Assembly (NCBI GenBank): GCA_965203855.1
Contig: CBDBDN010000009.1
Span: forward strand, 180,208 to 244,207
DNA length: 64,000 nucleotides
From: Dehalococcoidia bacterium
GTDB taxonomy: Bacteria > Chloroflexota > Dehalococcoidia > Lucifugimonadales > UBA3495
Direction: 5' to 3'
Part shown: piece by piece, positions 5,222-63,891 of the stretch
How positions within the stretch are numbered: position 1 is the first letter of the stretch
Layout: every line of letters begins with the position of its first letter
Position numbers and translations under genes: made by a program
The notes under the pieces: generated by a model
Database searches by the model: none
What the model was told of the DNA's origin: nothing
The model's input: only the letters and a program-made list of their open reading frames with translations

Positions 5222-6280
5222 CTAGCCAGGCGCGCCGCCGGCGTCGTCAACAGCGGCGTCCCGGCAGCCGGCATTCCACAGGGATTGTATCCAGCGGGCG
5301 GTTTCGGCAATGCCGGCGTCGGTTGAGTAAGGCAGCGGGCCGCAGATGCGCTCGGTAGGCGTCAAGTCAAACTGGTACTCGGTAAGGATGTTACGCAGCC
5401 GGAACGAAGTCAACGGCGCCGGCAAGCCGAGGGCTAGGGCGGCGTCGCCGGCGCGGGCGGCAATGCGGGCGACGCTGACCGGCATCGTGCGAATGGGGGG
5501 GGCGTGTAATTCCTGCCGGAAGCCGTCGGCCCAGCGGCGTAGCGAAAGGGGTCGGTAATCGGCGAGGTAGAACACGCGCTGCCGGATGTCATCCGTTGGA
5601 GCTTCCAGGATTTTGCGGTACTGGAAGGCGACATTTTTGACATAACCGTAGGATTTCCAGAGGGGCTGGCGTCCGATGTGAAAATACCGGCCGCGCCGCA
5701 GCAGGTTGAGGAAATGGCGGTAATGCTCTCCCATACCCGGCCCCCAAACGGTCGTGGGGCGGACAATGCACCAGGGGACGCCGGCGCCGTCCCGTTCCCG
5801 GATCAGCCGTTCCATCTGCGCCTTGCTTGCGCCGTAGAGCGTAGCGGGGTTGAATTCGTCATCCGACTGCGGGACATGGCCGATGGGGCAAACCAGCTGG
5901 GTTGAGGTAAATATGCCGAGTTGAACGGACGCGGCGGCCTGAATGGCGTCCAGCAGGTTGGCAGCGCCAAGGGTATTGGCGCCGTATCCGTCAATGCTCC
6001 GGGTTTCATCGAGGTCGACGCGGGCGGCCAGATGAATGACGGCATCGGGGGCCATCGTACTAACCAAGGCGATGAGGCGGTCGCGGTCGCGGATGTCGCA
6101 CTGCGCGAACTGCGGCGCGGCGATGCGGCACTGGGTAGGCCGGATGTCGCAGCCCCAGGCGTCATATCCGGCGGCAAGCAAAGTCTGCAAAAGGTGCCGG
6201 CCGATAAAGCCGGAGCTGCCGGTAACCAGGACGCGCCGGGCATCGGGCGATTTGGGCGGTATCGTATTCAGGACATTCAT
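5222..6280 (-). CDS. NAD-dependent epimerase/dehydratase (SDR family)
   Basis: N-terminal Rossmann motif VLVTGSSGFIGRHLL and YGASK active-site motif. Start overlaps the stop of the upstream GT gene by 4 nt. Confidence 0.85.
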   Translation of the reverse strand: MNVLNTIPPKSPDARRVLVTGSSGFIGRHLLQTLLAAGYDAWGCDIRPTQCRIAAPQFAQCDIRDRDRLIALVSTMAPDAVIHLAARVDLDETRSIDGYGANTLGAANLLDAIQAAASVQLGIFTSTQLVCPIGHVPQSDDEFNPATLYGASKAQMERLIRERDGAGVPWCIVRPTTVWGPGMGEHYRHFLNLLRRGRYFHIGRQPLWKSYGYVKNVAFQYRKILEAPTDDIRQRVFYLADYRPLSLRRWADGFRQELHAPPIRTMPVSVARIAARAGDAALALGLPAPLTSFRLRNILTEYQFDLTPTERICGPLPYSTDAGIAETARWIQSLWNAGCRDAAVDDAGGAPG

Positions 6281-7473
6281 CGGGTTTGAGACGAGGCGGG
6301 CCGGCGTTCCAGGATGTTGAGGTAATGTCCGCGCATTGCGGCGGCGATGGCGGGCCAGGAGTAACGGTCGGCGACCAGGGCGCGGGCATTGTCGGCCATG
6401 CGAGTGCGGCGGGCCGGGTCGGCAAGCAGTGCGCTAACCGCTTCGGTTACGGCGTCGCGCGCGGTGGGAACGACGAATCCGGCGGAATGCGCGGCGGCTT
6501 CGGGGAAATGGCATTGCTCGGAGATAACTACGGGGAGGCCGGCGGCCATCGCTTCCAAGACAGCAGTACTAAAGCCTTCCGAATAGGACGGCAGTACAAA
6601 GAGCTGTGACTGGCGGAGGGCGGCCTGCTTGTCGCTGCCGGTGAGCATTCCGGTAAAGAGCGCGCGGTTGCGGACGCCGTGGCTCCGCAGGATGGCTTCC
6701 ATAGGCGCCTGGGCGCCGCCCTGGTCGGGGCCGGCAACTAGTAGAAAGGCATCCGGGAAACGGCCGGCGATGTCGGCAAAGCTGCGGGCCAGCAAATCAA
6801 CGCCTTTCATTGGATGGATGCGGCCCATAAAAAGGATAATCCGTTTGCCGGCCAGCTGCGGGAAGCGGCGCAGCAAAGCGTTGTCAGCCGGGTTGGCGGT
6901 GTTGGAAAGGTCGGCGCCGTTGGGGCAGACGAACACGGGCTGAGAGTACCCGAGCTGCCGGATACGCGCTTTTTCGGCGCCGGTCAAGGCGTGAAGCGCG
7001 GCGGCGGAACGGATGACTTTATCCTGGACGAGGCGCATATAGAGGGCTTTTTTCAGGCGTTTATAGCGCAGACGCCAATCATCGAGGTCGCCGTGGAAGC
7101 TGATTACTGCGGGGATGTTATGGCGACGGGCCGCGCGGGAAGCGGCAAAGCCGGGATAGTGCCAGATTTCGTGGATATGGACGAGCTGGAAACGGCCGGC
7201 GCGCAGCTGGCCGTCAAGAAAGGGGGCCAGCCGAGGGGCATAGCCGGTCCAGAGGCGGGCCAGCGCGGCAGTGGGGAAGGAATGCACCGGGGTATCGGTT
7301 TCGGGTATGGAGAATCGGGATGCGGCGTTGTCGCTATCGGTTACAGTAGCGACTTCGCAGGATATGCCGGCGGCGGCAAGGGCGGGGATAAGGCCGCGCA
7401 GCACATTCATCGGGCCGCTGACTGCGGCGGGCAAACCGGGGACATGGGGAACGATGTGCAATACGCTTAACAT
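6277..7473 (-). CDS. glycosyltransferase family 4
   Basis: Start chosen at ATG 7473 (MLSVLHIVPHVPG), typical of a GT4 N-terminus. C-terminal EGFSTAVLEAMAAGLPVVISE motif. The 68 codons upstream in the ORF track look non-coding. Confidence 0.85.
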   Translation of the reverse strand: MLSVLHIVPHVPGLPAAVSGPMNVLRGLIPALAAAGISCEVATVTDSDNAASRFSIPETDTPVHSFPTAALARLWTGYAPRLAPFLDGQLRAGRFQLVHIHEIWHYPGFAASRAARRHNIPAVISFHGDLDDWRLRYKRLKKALYMRLVQDKVIRSAAALHALTGAEKARIRQLGYSQPVFVCPNGADLSNTANPADNALLRRFPQLAGKRIILFMGRIHPMKGVDLLARSFADIAGRFPDAFLLVAGPDQGGAQAPMEAILRSHGVRNRALFTGMLTGSDKQAALRQSQLFVLPSYSEGFSTAVLEAMAAGLPVVISEQCHFPEAAAHSAGFVVPTARDAVTEAVSALLADPARRTRMADNARALVADRYSWPAIAAAMRGHYLNILERRPASSQTR

Positions 7474-48958: not shown

Positions 48959-49118
48959 GTCATTCCGGCGTAAGCCGGAATCCAGGGTTGACGGTTTCCA
49001 TTACCGTCTTGGCGAATTGCGGCTCTGGATTCCGGCTTGCGCCGGAATGACGGGTAATAGGATTCGGAATGGCGGGTAGCAGGATTTGGGATGACGGGTA
49101 GCAGGATTCGGAATGAAG
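48959..49118. repeat. REP-like palindromic elements plus three 22-23-bp tandem units
   Basis: Hairpins ATTCCGGC-GTAA-GCCGGAAT (48962-48981) and ATTCCGGC-TTGC-GCCGGAAT (49029-49048). GAATGNCGGGTANNAGGATTNGG-type units at 49045-49115. Confidence 0.8.
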
Positions 49119-59572: not shown

Positions 59573-59767
59573 ATGCGTATTGCCGGGCTTGGCCCCTTCG
59601 AACTGCTGATTATCCTGCTGGTCGTTCTGCTGATTTTCGGGGCGTCCCGTTTGCCGGGCGTGGGCTCCGCCTTGGGCAAGGGCATTCGCTCTTTCAAGAC
59701 TTCGGTAACCGGGGAGGATGAAAAACCGGGCGCAGAGCGCACTACGGAGGAAAAGCCGGGTTCGTGA
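59573..59767 (+). CDS. tatA: twin-arginine translocase TatA/E family protein
   Basis: GPFELLIILLVVLLIFGASRLP, the canonical TatA TM helix-hinge, followed by an amphipathic helix. Confidence 0.85.
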   Translation: MRIAGLGPFELLIILLVVLLIFGASRLPGVGSALGKGIRSFKTSVTGEDEKPGAERTTEEKPGS

Positions 59768-59801: not shown

Positions 59802-59831
59802 GGGCGCAGTAACGCACTGCGCCCTTTATTA
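59802..59831 (+). terminator. intrinsic terminator after tatA
   Basis: GGGCGCAGT-AACGC-ACTGCGCCC followed by TTTATTA. Confidence 0.65.
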
Positions 59832-60797
59832 TTGCGTACCGGGCTCCGCATCAGCATCCGTATCCGCAAACGCCAAACGGCGGCGGCCGGCCAGGCGGGC
59901 GAGCAGGATCCCGATTTCGTACAGGACAATGAGCGGGCCGGCGACGATGGCCTGGTTGACCGGGTCGATGGTGGGGGTTATGGCGGCGGCGATTACGAAA
60001 GAGGCTACCAGCCAGAGGCGGCGGAAGCGGGCGAATCCGCGCGCGTTGACGATGCCTAGGGTTGCCAGTACATACATTACCAGCGGGGTCTCGAAGGAGA
60101 GGCCGAGCCAGAAGAGCAGGCGCACCATTATGTTGACCAGATTGCTGATGCGGATTAGGGGTTCGGCGATGTCGCTGCCGAAAGTCAGCAGGAAGCGCAG
60201 CGCCGGGGGTATCATTACGAAGTAGCCGAAGGCCATGCCGCCGATGAATGCCAGCAGGGCGGCGGGCAGGAAAGAGAAGAGGACTTTGCGCTCGCGCGGG
60301 GTCAGGCCCGGGGCGATGAAACGGATGGCGTTGTAGAGGATTACGGGGAGGGCCAGGACGAAGCCGCCCAGCAGGGACACGCGCACGGTGGCGCCCAGGA
60401 GTTCGGTTACTTCGGTATAGATGATGCGGAAGTCGTGGTCGGCGGCGACCTGCTGGGCCGGGAGTATCAGAAAGGCGAAGATGTCCGCGTAGAAGTAAAA
60501 GGAGACGGCTGACCCGACGAGTATGGCGCCGACGCAGGCTAGTATGCGGTTTCGGAGTTCCCGGAAGTGTTCGCGCAGGGGGAGTGGGGCGGCGGCGGGC
60601 GCAGCGGCTTGGGCTTGGCGGCGGCGCGCTTGCCAAGTTCGCCATCCGAGATAGAGGGCCAGGCCGATGACGATGACCGTCAGCGCGGCGACGGCGGCGG
60701 CAACCCAGTCGGGGGCATCCGCAAAGGGCGCCGGGGGCCAGCGCAATAATTCCTCAAACCATTCCAAAAGCCGTTCCAACAGCGACTGCGTTCTCAT
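59829..60797 (-). CDS. tatC: twin-arginine translocase subunit TatC with a roughly 75-aa N-terminal extension
   Basis: REHFRELRNRIL starts the conserved TatC core, followed by six TM segments. An extra hydrophobic helix sits in the first 75 aa. Confidence 0.85.
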   Translation of the reverse strand: MRTQSLLERLLEWFEELLRWPPAPFADAPDWVAAAVAALTVIVIGLALYLGWRTWQARRRQAQAAAPAAAPLPLREHFRELRNRILACVGAILVGSAVSFYFYADIFAFLILPAQQVAADHDFRIIYTEVTELLGATVRVSLLGGFVLALPVILYNAIRFIAPGLTPRERKVLFSFLPAALLAFIGGMAFGYFVMIPPALRFLLTFGSDIAEPLIRISNLVNIMVRLLFWLGLSFETPLVMYVLATLGIVNARGFARFRRLWLVASFVIAAAITPTIDPVNQAIVAGPLIVLYEIGILLARLAGRRRLAFADTDADAEPGTQ

Positions 60798-61250
60798 AGT
60801 CGGGTCAAATTGCCAAAACCGGGCGTCTATCCGATGGGAATGGATTCCGGCGTGCGCCGGAATGACGGGGTGGGGTGGGTGATTATTGCACGGGATGACG
60901 GGGTTATTATAATCGGGGCAAATTGCCGAACCGAGCGTCTATCCGATGGGAATGGATTCCGGCGTGCGCCGGAATGACGGGGGGATGGGTGATTATTGGA
61001 CGGAATGGCGGGGTTATTATAGTCGGGGCAAATTGCCTAACCGAGCGTCTATCCGATGGAATTGGATTCCGGCGTGCGCCGGAATGACGGGGTGGGGTGG
61101 GTGATTATTGCCCGGAATGGCGGGGTTATTATAATCGGGGCAAATTGCCGAACCGAGCGTCTATCCGATGGGAATGGATTCCGGCGTGCGCCGGAATGAC
61201 GGGGTGGGGTGGGTATTATTGGGCGGAATGATGGGGTGGGATGGGTGATT
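60798..61250. repeat. tandem array, four units of 110-113 bp, each carrying a REP-like hairpin
   Basis: Units start at about 60798, 60911, 61021 and 61133. Hairpins ATTCCGGC-GTGC-GCCGGAAT lie at 60844-60863, 60956-60975, 61066-61085 and 61178-61197. A degenerate G-rich tail runs to about 61340. Confidence 0.9.
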
Positions 61251-61354: not shown

Positions 61355-61714
61355 CTAGTCGGCCGGTTTGGCGGGGCCGTCCGGGTTGTTTGGCGGTTTT
61401 GGCGGATTTTCCGGGCTGTCCTGCTGCTGGGACAGGTGGGGCGGCGTGTCCAGCGGAGTTTCCGGGGGGCGGCGTGGGGCATCGGGCGGCGGGACGGGTG
61501 CGTCGGCATTTTGACTGGGGGCGTCTGGCTGCCGGCTGCTGTTGGTATCGTTGAGCGACGCGGCATCCATTACTTCGGTAAAGGTGCGGCGGGCTTCGCG
61601 CATGATGCGGCCCAGGGTGCGCGCCGTTTCCATGGTCTTGCCCGGCCCCAGCGCGATGATTGCTACCAGAAAGATGACGGCAAGTTCCATCGTGCCAATG
61701 CCGAATATATTCAT
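61355..61714 (-). CDS. tatB: TatA/TatB family protein (TatB-like, Pro-rich tail)
   Basis: MNIFGIGTMELAVIFLVAIIALGPGK (TM helix plus GP hinge). ATG 61714 overlaps the upstream stop (ATGA). Confidence 0.7.
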   Translation of the reverse strand: MNIFGIGTMELAVIFLVAIIALGPGKTMETARTLGRIMREARRTFTEVMDAASLNDTNSSRQPDAPSQNADAPVPPPDAPRRPPETPLDTPPHLSQQQDSPENPPKPPNNPDGPAKPAD

Positions 61715-63603
61715 CGGGACGCGCTCCCGGCGTCCGGCGTGGGGCCGGTCGCTGTTGCGAAGGGGCAATTGACGGTGCAGCCCGGAGGAACGGCGGCGGC
61801 AGACAAGTCGGGGAGAGGGCAGCCGAGTTCGGCGAGCAGGTTGGTGATGCGGCACACGGGCAGGCCCATCACATTGGAATAGCAGCCGTGCGTCAAGCGC
61901 GCCGGGCGGAATTCGGCGTCCTGTATGGCGTAGGCGCCGGCCTTGTCCATAGGCGTACCGGAGGCGATGGACTGCTCCATTTCGGCGTCGGTAAAGTTTC
62001 GCATTACGACATCAGCGGACATGGCTTCGGTGAGGCAGCGTCCGGTTGCGGCGTCGTAGGCGGTGAGGCCGGTTATTACCTGGTGAGCGGCGCCGCGGAG
62101 TCGGGAGAGCATAGCGCGGGCATCGGCGGCGTCAACGGGCTTGGCGATGGCTTGTCCGTACAGGACTACCGTGCTGTCGGCGGCGATGTAGTAGCCGGCG
62201 GCGGCGGACTGCTGGGCGGCGGCGGCCAGGGCTTTGGCGCGGGAAAGCCGCCATACCATTTGCTCCGGGGATTCGCCGTCCTGCTGTTCCTCGGGGATGT
62301 GGGACGGCGCGACGGTGAAGTCTAACCCCAGCCCGGAGAGCAGTTCGCGGCGTCGGGGGGACGCCGACGCCAGGATGATGGCGGCGGCGGTTGGCTTGCG
62401 CGACAGGGCGGCGACGCACTCAATATGATAGGTTTGAGGGAACATATCTACGGGCTGGATCCATTCTATGCGATAGGCTTGGCAGAGGGTGCGTAAATCG
62501 CGGGCGAGGGATTCCGGGTTGCAGGATACATAGGCGATGCGCGCGGGGCGCATGGCCAAGATGGCGTTCAAGGCTGCGGGGTGGCAGCCGGCGCGGGAGG
62601 GATCCAGGACTACGGCGTCGGGGGGCGGGGTCATTTCGGGCAGTACATTTTCCACTTTGCCGGTGATGATGCTGGCGTTGGAGATGCCGTCCAGGTTAGT
62701 GGCGGCGTCGGCGATTGCGGCGGTGGATTCCTCAACGGCGATGATGCGCTTGGCGTCGGCGGCGAGGAGGGCGGCGAATACGCCGACGCCGGCGTAGGCG
62801 TCCAGCACGGTTTCGGAGCCGGTTAGTTGGAGGGCGTTTCGCACGAGGTCAACCAGCCGGGCGGCCTGCTTGATGTTGACCTGAAAGAAGGATGGGGATG
62901 CGACCCGGAAAGTGCGGCCGGCTACGGTTTCCTGGTAGGTTTTCTGTCCGCTGGCCGGGGCAAGGTCCGGGTTATCCAGGGTGGGCTGTATCAGGTAATC
63001 GCCGGTGGCCGAGGAGGCGCGGATGGAGAGCTGGGAGGTTTCGGCGCATTTTTCCTGCAACTGCTTTAGCAGGTGATTGATGCCGTCGTGCATGAGCATA
63101 CAGCGGTCAATGCGTATGAAACGGCGGCGCTCCCGGTGGACAAAGCCCAGCTCTCCGGTGGAACGCCAGATAGTGAAGCGGGCGTGGTTGCGGTATTCCA
63201 GCGGCTGGGGTGCGGGCAGAGTGGGGAGTACGGGGGCGCGGTGAAAGGAGCCGATGCGGGACATGGCGTCGCGGACGATGCCGGTTTTGGCGTCCAGCTG
63301 GGCGGGGTAGTCGAGGTGCTGCCATTGGCATCCGGTGCAGTGGCCGAAATAGGGGCAGGGGGGGCTGACGCGATGCGGGGATGGTTGCAGAACCTGGGTT
63401 ACCTGTGCGGCGAGGTATTTGCGTCGGGTGGCGATGATTTCGGCGATGACGGTTTCGCCGGGGATGCCGCCGAAAACGAAAACGTCGTGGCCGTCGTGGA
63501 CAGCCATAGCCTCGCCCAGGCGGCCCCAGGAATGGAGATAAAGTTGTACGGCGTCGCCCCGCTGCAAAGGGGGGGATGACGCGGGCGCAGCGATGTTGGT
63601 CAT
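61711..63603 (-). CDS. fusion protein: RlmD/RumA-type 23S rRNA (uracil-C5)-methyltransferase (aa 1-~402) plus Maf-like nucleoside triphosphate pyrophosphatase (aa ~405-630)
   Basis: TRAM-like N-terminus, Cys cluster CPYFGHCTGCQWQH, SAM motif VLDAYAGVGVFA, YVSCNP and TYHIECVAAL. Then IILASASPRRRELL and GAYAIQD, which are typical Maf motifs. Confidence 0.8.
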   Translation of the reverse strand: MTNIAAPASSPPLQRGDAVQLYLHSWGRLGEAMAVHDGHDVFVFGGIPGETVIAEIIATRRKYLAAQVTQVLQPSPHRVSPPCPYFGHCTGCQWQHLDYPAQLDAKTGIVRDAMSRIGSFHRAPVLPTLPAPQPLEYRNHARFTIWRSTGELGFVHRERRRFIRIDRCMLMHDGINHLLKQLQEKCAETSQLSIRASSATGDYLIQPTLDNPDLAPASGQKTYQETVAGRTFRVASPSFFQVNIKQAARLVDLVRNALQLTGSETVLDAYAGVGVFAALLAADAKRIIAVEESTAAIADAATNLDGISNASIITGKVENVLPEMTPPPDAVVLDPSRAGCHPAALNAILAMRPARIAYVSCNPESLARDLRTLCQAYRIEWIQPVDMFPQTYHIECVAALSRKPTAAAIILASASPRRRELLSGLGLDFTVAPSHIPEEQQDGESPEQMVWRLSRAKALAAAAQQSAAAGYYIAADSTVVLYGQAIAKPVDAADARAMLSRLRGAAHQVITGLTAYDAATGRCLTEAMSADVVMRNFTDAEMEQSIASGTPMDKAGAYAIQDAEFRPARLTHGCYSNVMGLPVCRITNLLAELGCPLPDLSAAAVPPGCTVNCPFATATGPTPDAGSASR

Positions 63604-63891
63604 AGCGATATAGTATCACTATTCCGGGGAGGTCTCACGCCGGCCCTCTCGGTGGGGGAGCGCGGATGATGGCATGGATGGAGGGGATGGATGGGATTTT
63701 GGGCATTCGGGGGATTACACCGATAGACAGGATGGACGGGATTTTGGGGCCTCCTTGTGGGATTGGGGGTTGGGGTCGGGTTGCGATGTCGGGTTGTCGG
63801 GTTGGGGTTGTCGGGTTCAAGGTGGTCGGGTGCGTTGGGATTGGGTTGGGTTGGGATTGGATTGCAGTCTGCCAGGGTTTGCGGTCGCTTA

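Follow-up and report, generated by a model that had tools for sequence, protein, structure and literature searches.

In a 64-kb window of contig CBDBDN010000009.1 from a Dehalococcoidia bacterium (the window being the whole stretch of DNA that we analyzed), a single gene on the minus strand encodes a polypeptide in which a RumA/RlmD-type methyltransferase, the enzyme family that produces 5-methyluridine (m5U) in RNA, is joined to a Maf nucleotide pyrophosphatase. RlmD forms m5U in 23S rRNA, and Maf/YhdE proteins hydrolyze canonical and modified nucleotides, including m5U triphosphate (m5UTP) and pseudouridine triphosphate (pseudo-UTP), which has been proposed to serve as housecleaning of the turnover products of modified RNA. 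The reading that we favor, with modest confidence, is that the fusion represents a bifunctional enzyme which would pair the synthesis of m5U in RNA with the removal of m5UTP from the nucleotide pool. The gene and its parts are as follows:

61711..63603, minus strand: the whole fusion gene, m5U RNA methyltransferase plus Maf, a single open reading frame (ORF) with both families above their curated cutoffs.
63385..63567, minus strand: TRAM-like beta-barrel, presumed RNA-binding domain, residues ~13-73, placed by the model strands and the alignment with the N-termini of RumA and RlmCD.
63316..63357, minus strand: CPYFGHCTGCQWQH, residues 83-96, with three of the four predicted [4Fe-4S] ligands (C83, C89, and C92), by alignment with RumA.
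63100..63102, minus strand: C168, invariant, the fourth predicted [4Fe-4S] ligand, which aligns with RumA C162.
62398..62952, minus strand: catalytic domain of the S-adenosylmethionine (SAM)-dependent m5U methyltransferase, residues ~218-402, by PF05958 and TIGR00479.
62380..62397, minus strand: inter-domain linker KPTAAA, residues 403-408, the spacing between the equivalents of L400 and L411 being constant in 62 of 81 proteins.
61810..62379, minus strand: Maf nucleoside-triphosphate pyrophosphatase domain, residues 409-598, by PF02545, TIGR00172, and mapping onto YhdE and Bacillus subtilis Maf.
61765..61884, minus strand: lineage-specific four-cysteine motif, C574 (in GCY), C584 (in GLPVC), and C609 with C613 (in GCTVNCPF), from the alignment.

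The ORF consists of 630 codons and a TGA stop, starts with ATG and has no internal stops in the ORF listing of the window, as had been claimed in an earlier note made from the letters of this DNA. The motifs quoted in that note were all found in the translation (CPYFGHCTGCQWQH, VLDAYAGVGVFA, YVSCNP, TYHIECVAAL, IILASASPRRRELL, ADSTVV, and GAYAIQD), and the junction that it placed near nucleotide 62389 corresponds to codon 405, which falls within the linker. Based on the structure model, ~6 residues separate the final strand of the methyltransferase (residues 395-402) from the initial strand of the Maf domain (residues 409-411). There are no in-frame ATG, GTG, or TTG codons between residues 388 and 420, leading us to deduce that the Maf half is made only within the fusion. 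No additional copy of maf or rlmD was detected by phmmer in any frame of the window.

The methyltransferase half (residues 1-402) scored 313.3 bits against the NCBIfam model TIGR00479 (rumA, cutoff 183.55) and 78.3 bits against the Pfam model PF05958 (tRNA_U5-meth_tr, cutoff 23), in both cases with the match at residues 218-395. Its catalytic domain contains a SAM-binding motif (DAYAGVG), the motif of the nucleophile (YVSC361NP) and that of the general base (HIE395C), the latter two of which align with ISCN and HVE of RlmCD, and both C361 and E395 are invariant in the alignment of 71 fusion proteins. In addition, C83, C89, C92, and C168 match C81, C87, C90, and C162 of RumA (1uwv) column for column and are invariant in the same 71 proteins, so that this half is predicted to carry a [4Fe-4S] cluster. 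The TRAM-like start suggested by the earlier note is evident as a beta-barrel in the model (strands at residues 18-73), onto which the N-terminal domains of RumA and RlmCD align; the Pfam TRAM model itself was found in two distant fusion relatives (P0124 and P0125) and not in the window protein.

An AlphaFold2 model of the fusion protein, built from the 71-sequence alignment, had a mean predicted local distance difference test (pLDDT) value of 88.4 and a predicted TM-score (pTM) of 0.88. Foldseek searches with this model returned RlmCD and RumA with TM-scores normalized to target length (TMt) of 0.76-0.77, in alignments that cover 428-458 columns and include the N-terminus, and the Maf structures 1ex2, 4heb, and 4p0e with TMt of 0.87-0.89. 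The solved structures that match residues 1-402 are Streptococcus pneumoniae RlmCD, Escherichia coli RumA, the Pyrococcus abyssi tRNA U54 methyltransferase and a U747 methyltransferase. As RlmCD (U747 and U1939), RumA (U1939) and the tRNA U54 and U747 enzymes are comparably close, no one target can be assigned, and "RlmD" is a family-level label, the sequence being compatible with 23S U1939, 23S U747, or tRNA U54. The stricter RlmD model NF009639 scored 225 against a cutoff of 458. Hence the part of the RlmD identification in the earlier note that stands is membership of the RumA/RlmD family, and strict U1939 function does not follow from it; 23S rRNA is the most likely target, although the sequence does not decide the matter.

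The Maf half scored 168.6 bits for PF02545 (Pfam; cutoff 27, residues 409-592) and 140.7 bits for TIGR00172 (maf, NCBIfam; cutoff 117.15). We mapped its residues onto E. coli YhdE and B. subtilis Maf, using the motif definitions of Tchigvintsev et al. (2013; PMC3899018), and thereby located S415, R417, R418, E438, K457, D476, S477, K488, and Q561. The Maf signature S-R-E-K-D-K, which in YhdE comprises Ser10, Arg13, Glu33, Lys52, Asp70, and Lys82 (PMC3899018), is complete in the window protein as S415, R418, E438, K457, D476, and K488, and it is kept at ungapped positions in all 81 Dehalococcoidia fusions. The two Maf subfamilies are distinguished by the triads R-T-Q (YhdE; Arg12, Thr71, and Gln153) and W-Q-E (YceF) (PMC3899018). 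The triad of the window protein is R417-S477-Q561, as in all 81 Dehalococcoidia fusions; two of its residues are identical to those of YhdE, and the third differs by a conservative change of threonine to serine. The W-Q-E triad was found in neither of the two fusion lineages that we identified (the second, from Aminicenantes, is described below), and the Aminicenantes fusions have the exact R-T-Q triad in 121 of 121 proteins. From these residues, the Maf of both fusion lineages is probably YhdE-type. Each half of the window protein is an ordinary member of its own family. One lineage-specific feature of this Maf is the four-cysteine motif (C574/C584/C609/C613, CX9CX24CX3C). All 81 Dehalococcoidia fusions have it without variation, and it also occurs in the Maf encoded on L087, a metagenomic scaffold considered below, whereas it is lacking in E. 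coli YhdE, B. subtilis Maf, and the Aminicenantes fusions. The four cysteines may form a metal site, with zinc or an Fe-S cluster, by which the C-terminal tail is anchored to the core of the Maf domain.

The fusion is widespread and conserved. The best 80 loci taken from GTDB species-representative genomes (identity 52-73%) were from Dehalococcoidia/SAR202/Chloroflexota metagenome-assembled genomes, with the exception of one record labeled Acidobacteria, and in every one of them both halves lie in an uninterrupted single ORF, many of these on closed multi-megabase chromosomes. Together with the Pfam and NCBIfam matches of both halves, this bears out the methyltransferase-then-Maf architecture described in the earlier note. 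In a collection of 5.8 billion proteins the best 120 clusters (60-96% identity) all had both Pfam domains and a length of ~620-630 residues, and many sit on megabase-scale contigs. An exhaustive search of 1.84 billion representatives identified ~8 full-length 50%-identity clusters with the methyltransferase-Maf order, down to 40% identity, and beneath these the ranking was occupied by unfused proteins of ~400 residues. The two halves are equally constrained, as evidenced by their mean pairwise identities (64.2% for the methyltransferase and 62.3% for the Maf half) and proportions of invariant columns (25 and 23%). As regards the spread of the architecture, for which the earlier note had proposed a search, the fusion is fixed throughout a large clade of Dehalococcoidia/SAR202, and the reverse order is found in Aminicenantes/Acidobacteriota.

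In this second type of fusion, exemplified by P0201 and P0205, the order is Maf-TRAM-methyltransferase, again in one polypeptide of ~640 residues, and the architecture is present in at least 120 clusters labeled Candidatus Aminicenantes or Acidobacteriota. The loci that we inspected are:

L084, 3492-5423, strand not stated: reverse-order fusion, Maf-TRAM-m5U methyltransferase.
L085, 4758-6683, strand not stated: reverse-order fusion, Maf-TRAM-m5U methyltransferase.

Neither locus has tat neighbors, and a VapB/PIN pair lies downstream of the L084 copy. Between the window protein and the Aminicenantes fusions, identity is ~30% in the methyltransferase half and 34-36% in the Maf half, whereas the former half reaches 42-51% with unfused relatives and the latter 40% with E. 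coli YhdE. Since neither half of the reverse-order fusion is specifically related to its counterpart in the window, we conclude that it arose independently, and a common origin of the two orders is ruled out.

An operon stage is also seen among unfused proteins. For seven close unfused relatives the 3' flank was informative, and in three of these (P0133, P0140, and P0137) maf lies directly 3' of the methyltransferase gene on the same strand, with a 46-nt spacer and maf in another frame in P0133, a 4-nt overlap in P0140, and both parts in one frame in P0137. The last of these is found on L087, a TARA scaffold, in which (region 6120-6320) the rlmD-like gene stops at a TGA (6180-6182) and the frame runs on into Maf; the essential SPRR (within LILASRSPRR) comes after this TGA and ahead of the called maf start, with no start codon preceding the motif. 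What L087 carries may be a fusion interrupted by a nonsense or read-through codon, an error of sequencing, or a Maf that is crippled at its N-terminus.

The earlier note regarded the fusion of an enzyme that creates m5U with one that destroys m5UTP as a Rosetta-stone link between the two functions, a proposal that is supported, if not proven, by the independent reverse-order fusion, the rlmD-maf operons, and the presence of a Maf of probable YhdE type in both lineages. For the YhdE subfamily m5UTP (ribo-TTP) is the reported preferred substrate in vitro, with uridine triphosphate (UTP), deoxythymidine triphosphate (dTTP), pseudo-UTP and 5-methylcytidine triphosphate (m5CTP) also being hydrolyzed (PMC3899018), and the kcat/KM of E. 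coli YhdE is 5.7e5 for m5UTP versus 2.2e5 for UTP (PMC3899018). What the sequences themselves show is the architecture, its conservation, the kept catalytic residues, the second fusion, and the operon stage; we infer from them both activities of the fusion, its RNA target, the role of m5UTP as the relevant substrate in vivo, and sanitation as the selective reason for the fusion. Under this proposal, residues 1-402 would make m5U in structured RNA using SAM, with Cys361 as the nucleophile, Glu395 as the base, and the participation of the [4Fe-4S] cluster and the TRAM-like barrel, and the C-terminal ~220 residues, as a YhdE-type Maf, would convert pyrimidine nucleoside triphosphates, m5UTP among them, to the monophosphates and pyrophosphate. 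The breakdown of m5U-containing RNA would release m5UMP, which could be re-phosphorylated to m5UTP and then mis-incorporated by RNA polymerase. The advantage of joining the writer to the sanitizer of the pool would be to fix their stoichiometry, so that each cell that makes m5U has the matching enzyme for the removal of m5UTP. As to its origin, an rlmD-maf operon probably lost the stop between its two genes, and the resulting fusion then became fixed in a large clade of Dehalococcoidia/SAR202, where it heads an rlmD-maf/tatB/tatC unit.

Several observations weigh against this proposal. There is no obvious kinetic gain from the fusion, because the two active sites do not channel a substrate from one to the other. 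The YhdE type is the usual one in bacteria that have a single Maf, so the finding of this type in both fusions discriminates only weakly. At the position of YhdE residue 71 the Dehalococcoidia fusions have serine instead of threonine. Among the seven unfused relatives the downstream genes are unrelated in three, and an abundant marine SAR202 cluster (P0139, on contig L088) has rlmD-tatB-tatC with no Maf domain. The latter cluster has 50 members, is AT-rich, encodes an rlmD-like protein of 402 residues under the record name "SAR202 cluster bacterium" and, on L088, has a tatA/B-tatC-tatA (convergent) layout like that of the window after the rlmD-like gene; it represents either loss of Maf or the state prior to fusion, and it indicates that the link between methyltransferase and Maf is dispensable. 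There are also biochemical grounds for caution: dTTP and UTP are YhdE-type substrates as well (PMC3899018); in E. coli in vivo, dTMP and UMP were the only nucleotides that changed, modified nucleotides being under the detection limit (PMC3899018); and the kcat/KM of B. subtilis Maf is higher with pseudo-UTP and with m5CTP than it is with m5UTP (PMC3899018, Table 1), from which it follows that a preference for m5UTP is not universal.

In an alternative that we consider unlikely, yet the most serious of those weighed here, the two domains share only their expression: Maf would trim the dTTP and UTP pools for the control of division or growth rate, and would have been joined to the methyltransferase, a gene of ribosome biogenesis, as an operon neighbor, the fusion serving to couple expression related to growth with m5U being irrelevant. 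In its favor, dTTP and UTP are the only in vivo substrates supported for E. coli YhdE, and the earliest association of Maf was with division arrest (PMC3899018). Fusion by stop loss would be easy from an operon stage with 4-nt overlaps, the conserved operon with the functionally unrelated tat genes means that neighborhood in this clade need not imply a common function, and the SAR202 clade without the Maf part is likewise readily accommodated. What argues against it is recurrence: the same two families have been fused independently, in the opposite order and in another phylum, the methyltransferase and maf are operon partners in further lineages, and such recurrence of one specific partner is unexpected if neighboring genes fuse neutrally.

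A different possibility, which we hold to be improbable, is that the protein works as a machine in cis, in which Maf serves as a pocket that recognizes U or m5U, acts as a pyrophosphatase on a 5'-triphosphate or nucleotide bound to RNA or a ribosome precursor, or dimerizes the enzyme. Solved Maf proteins are dimers, and the Maf entries that we matched in the PDB have two chains each. The shortness of the linker (~6 residues) and its spacing, constant in 62 of the 81 proteins, would suit such a role, as would the pTM of 0.88, which for a multi-domain model of 630 residues suggests defined domain placement, and the invariant lineage-specific four-cysteine motif in the C-terminal part of the Maf. 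Conversely, all six catalytic residues for hydrolysis of nucleoside triphosphates are kept, as in an ordinary enzyme acting on free nucleotides; the occurrence of both domain orders, and of the two partners as separate proteins, speaks against a machine dependent on geometry; and the L087 Maf, which is outside the fixed fusion, has the four cysteines too. A more speculative extension, to which we also attach little likelihood, would take the recurrent fusion to make the YhdE-type Maf a dedicated partner of m5U synthesis instead of a general housekeeper, with a Maf that acts in concert with the methyltransferase, either on the ribosome or RNA substrate or as a sensor of m5U nucleotides that tunes methylation, four cysteines that form a regulatory metal or Fe-S center, and read-through of the L087 TGA that sets the ratio of methyltransferase to methyltransferase-Maf. 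Lastly, that a missed stop or frameshift merged two neighboring genes during sequencing or assembly is scarcely credible, for although L087, whose halves share a frame and are parted by one TGA, indicates that a stop at the junction can be gained, lost or mis-called, the ORF is intact in all 80 independent genomes, the best 120 protein clusters from several sources agree in length and domains, the junction is conserved, and a separate Maf would have no start codon, so that we regard an assembly artefact as excluded.

The fusion gene is the first gene of a conserved unit with genes for twin-arginine translocation (Tat), and the neighboring features in the window are:

61711..61714, minus strand: ATGA stop/start overlap with the TatB-like gene, from the sequence (TGA 61713-61711 and ATG 61714-61712).
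61355..61714, minus strand: gene for a TatA/B-family protein of 119 residues (PF02416, 28.3 bits against a cutoff of 21).
59829..60797, minus strand: tatC, 322 residues (PF00902, 202.6 bits; TIGR00945, 187 bits).
59573-59767, plus strand: convergent tatA, identified by Pfam and NCBIfam.

The TatA/B-family protein scored 33.5 bits with TIGR01410 (tatB), which is below the cutoff of that model. The order of fusion gene, tatB-like gene, and tatC was kept in 80 of 80 loci, with the convergent tatA after tatC, and 60 of the 80 have the fusion gene overlapping the tatB-like gene by 4 nt, which together with the ATGA in the window upholds the overlap and translational coupling that the earlier note described. 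The fusion protein itself was considered as a Tat substrate, and this was ruled out as its N-terminus (MTNIAAPASSPPLQRGD) has no twin-arginine motif. There is no apparent functional reason for linking a gene for ribosome modification to Tat export, and because the tat genes are absent from the vicinity of the Aminicenantes fusions and present beside the SAR202 relative that has no Maf, we view the linkage as synteny of the lineage that lies outside the logic of the fusion.

In the window, a 112-nt unit (91% matches) occurs four times in tandem at 60796-61237, reaching ~61352, and so fills the interval that separates tatC from the tatB-like gene, an array shared with L081, a relative that is 96% identical to the window. 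The palindrome ATTCCGGCGTGCGCCGGAAT is in every copy of the repeat, and there are near-copies of it ~12 kb away, at 48962-48981 and 49029-49048, for which the chance expectation was 0 matches. Since in most of the related loci no such interval separates the tatB-like ORF from that of tatC, the two abutting or overlapping, the array is a repetitive extragenic palindrome (REP) or miniature inverted-repeat transposable element (MITE)-like insertion. At the other end of the unit, upstream of the fusion gene (63640-63880), the plus strand is G-rich (the gene strand being C-rich) with short degenerate repeats, the units reported by Tandem Repeats Finder including GGGTTGTCGGGTTG and GTTGGGATTGGATTGG; the tatB-tatC repeat units have a G-rich part that resembles this stretch. 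We were unable to detect a sigma-70-like promoter upstream of the start of the fusion gene, the promoter and terminator scans having given only weak consensus matches.

The physiological role of Maf has been an open question since its pyrophosphatase activity was found, with control of division by the trimming of dTTP and UTP on the one hand and house-cleaning of modified nucleotides on the other. A fusion to an m5U writer, an independent fusion in reverse, and operon intermediates constitute comparative-genomic evidence for house-cleaning, one that points to m5UTP, and the fusion proteins are natural, compact proteins with which that idea could be tested. They also have a practical consequence for annotation. 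The fusions (e.g., records P0040, P0124, P0416, P0298, and P0305) are entered as "23S rRNA (uracil(1939)-C(5))-methyltransferase RlmD," "Maf family nucleotide pyrophosphatase," or "RumA/MAF protein," the last being the Joint Genome Institute (JGI) name of some Aminicenantes/Acidobacteriota fusions. As the first two names give only RlmD or only Maf, one of the activities is hidden in most annotations and does not show up when the metabolism of Dehalococcoidia/SAR202 and Aminicenantes is reconstructed.

In our full-text literature search, which did not reach subscription-only papers, no paper on this particular fusion of an m5U methyltransferase with Maf was found, PMC3899018 being the only relevant one. 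The remark of the earlier note that no description of the fusion was known to it consequently holds with respect to a characterizing paper, and does not hold more broadly, as the fusion is common and annotated in databases and an association of Maf with methyltransferases was noted in 2013 (PMC3899018). Specifically, Tchigvintsev et al. (2013; PMC3899018) took the eukaryotic Maf-methyltransferase fusions and the linkage of maf and methyltransferase genes in archaea as a hint of a functional relationship. With the fusion common and annotated and the concept thus anticipated, the novelty is smaller than the earlier note implied.

With respect to known systems, the closest counterparts of the methyltransferase half are E. 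coli RumA/RlmD (m5U1939; 1uwv and 2bh2) and S. pneumoniae RlmCD (5xj1 and 5zq0), which consist of the same TRAM-like barrel, central, and methyltransferase domains. The fusion has the four [4Fe-4S] cysteines of RumA, the SCNP nucleophile, and the HxE base, although identity is only ~25% and the C-terminal Maf is additional. We know of no characterized RumA, RlmC, RlmCD, or TrmA that has such a C-terminal Maf domain. The tRNA U54 enzyme of P. abyssi (2jjq/2vs1) is about as close to the fusion as RumA and RlmCD are. The Maf half has the same fold as the YhdE-subfamily proteins E. coli YhdE (4p0e) and B. subtilis Maf (1ex2), with 34-40% identity, the full signature and the equivalents of Arg12 and Gln153, but it differs from them in not being a stand-alone protein, in having Thr71 replaced by serine in 81 of 81 fusions, and in its extra C-terminal tail and four cysteines. 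The Aminicenantes fusions (P0201 and P0205) combine the same two families in ~640 residues, with a YhdE-type Maf and complete catalytic residues, but have the reversed order, a methyltransferase half of the longer type, no four-cysteine motif, and no tat neighbors. Human ASMTL and other eukaryotic Maf-methyltransferase fusions (2p5x) likewise join a YhdE-like Maf to a domain with a SAM-dependent methyltransferase fold. In these, Maf is N-terminal in ASMTL and joined to an O-methyltransferase of the ASMT-like kind whose substrate is not known, and their origin is unrelated. Membership of the ASMTL type is ruled out for the window protein, in which Maf is C-terminal and the partner belongs to PF05958/TIGR00479, the general theme alone being common to both. 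Unlike in ASMTL, the link between the two domains is interpretable here, because the methyltransferase family makes m5U and Maf is reported to prefer m5UTP, so that product and substrate correspond.

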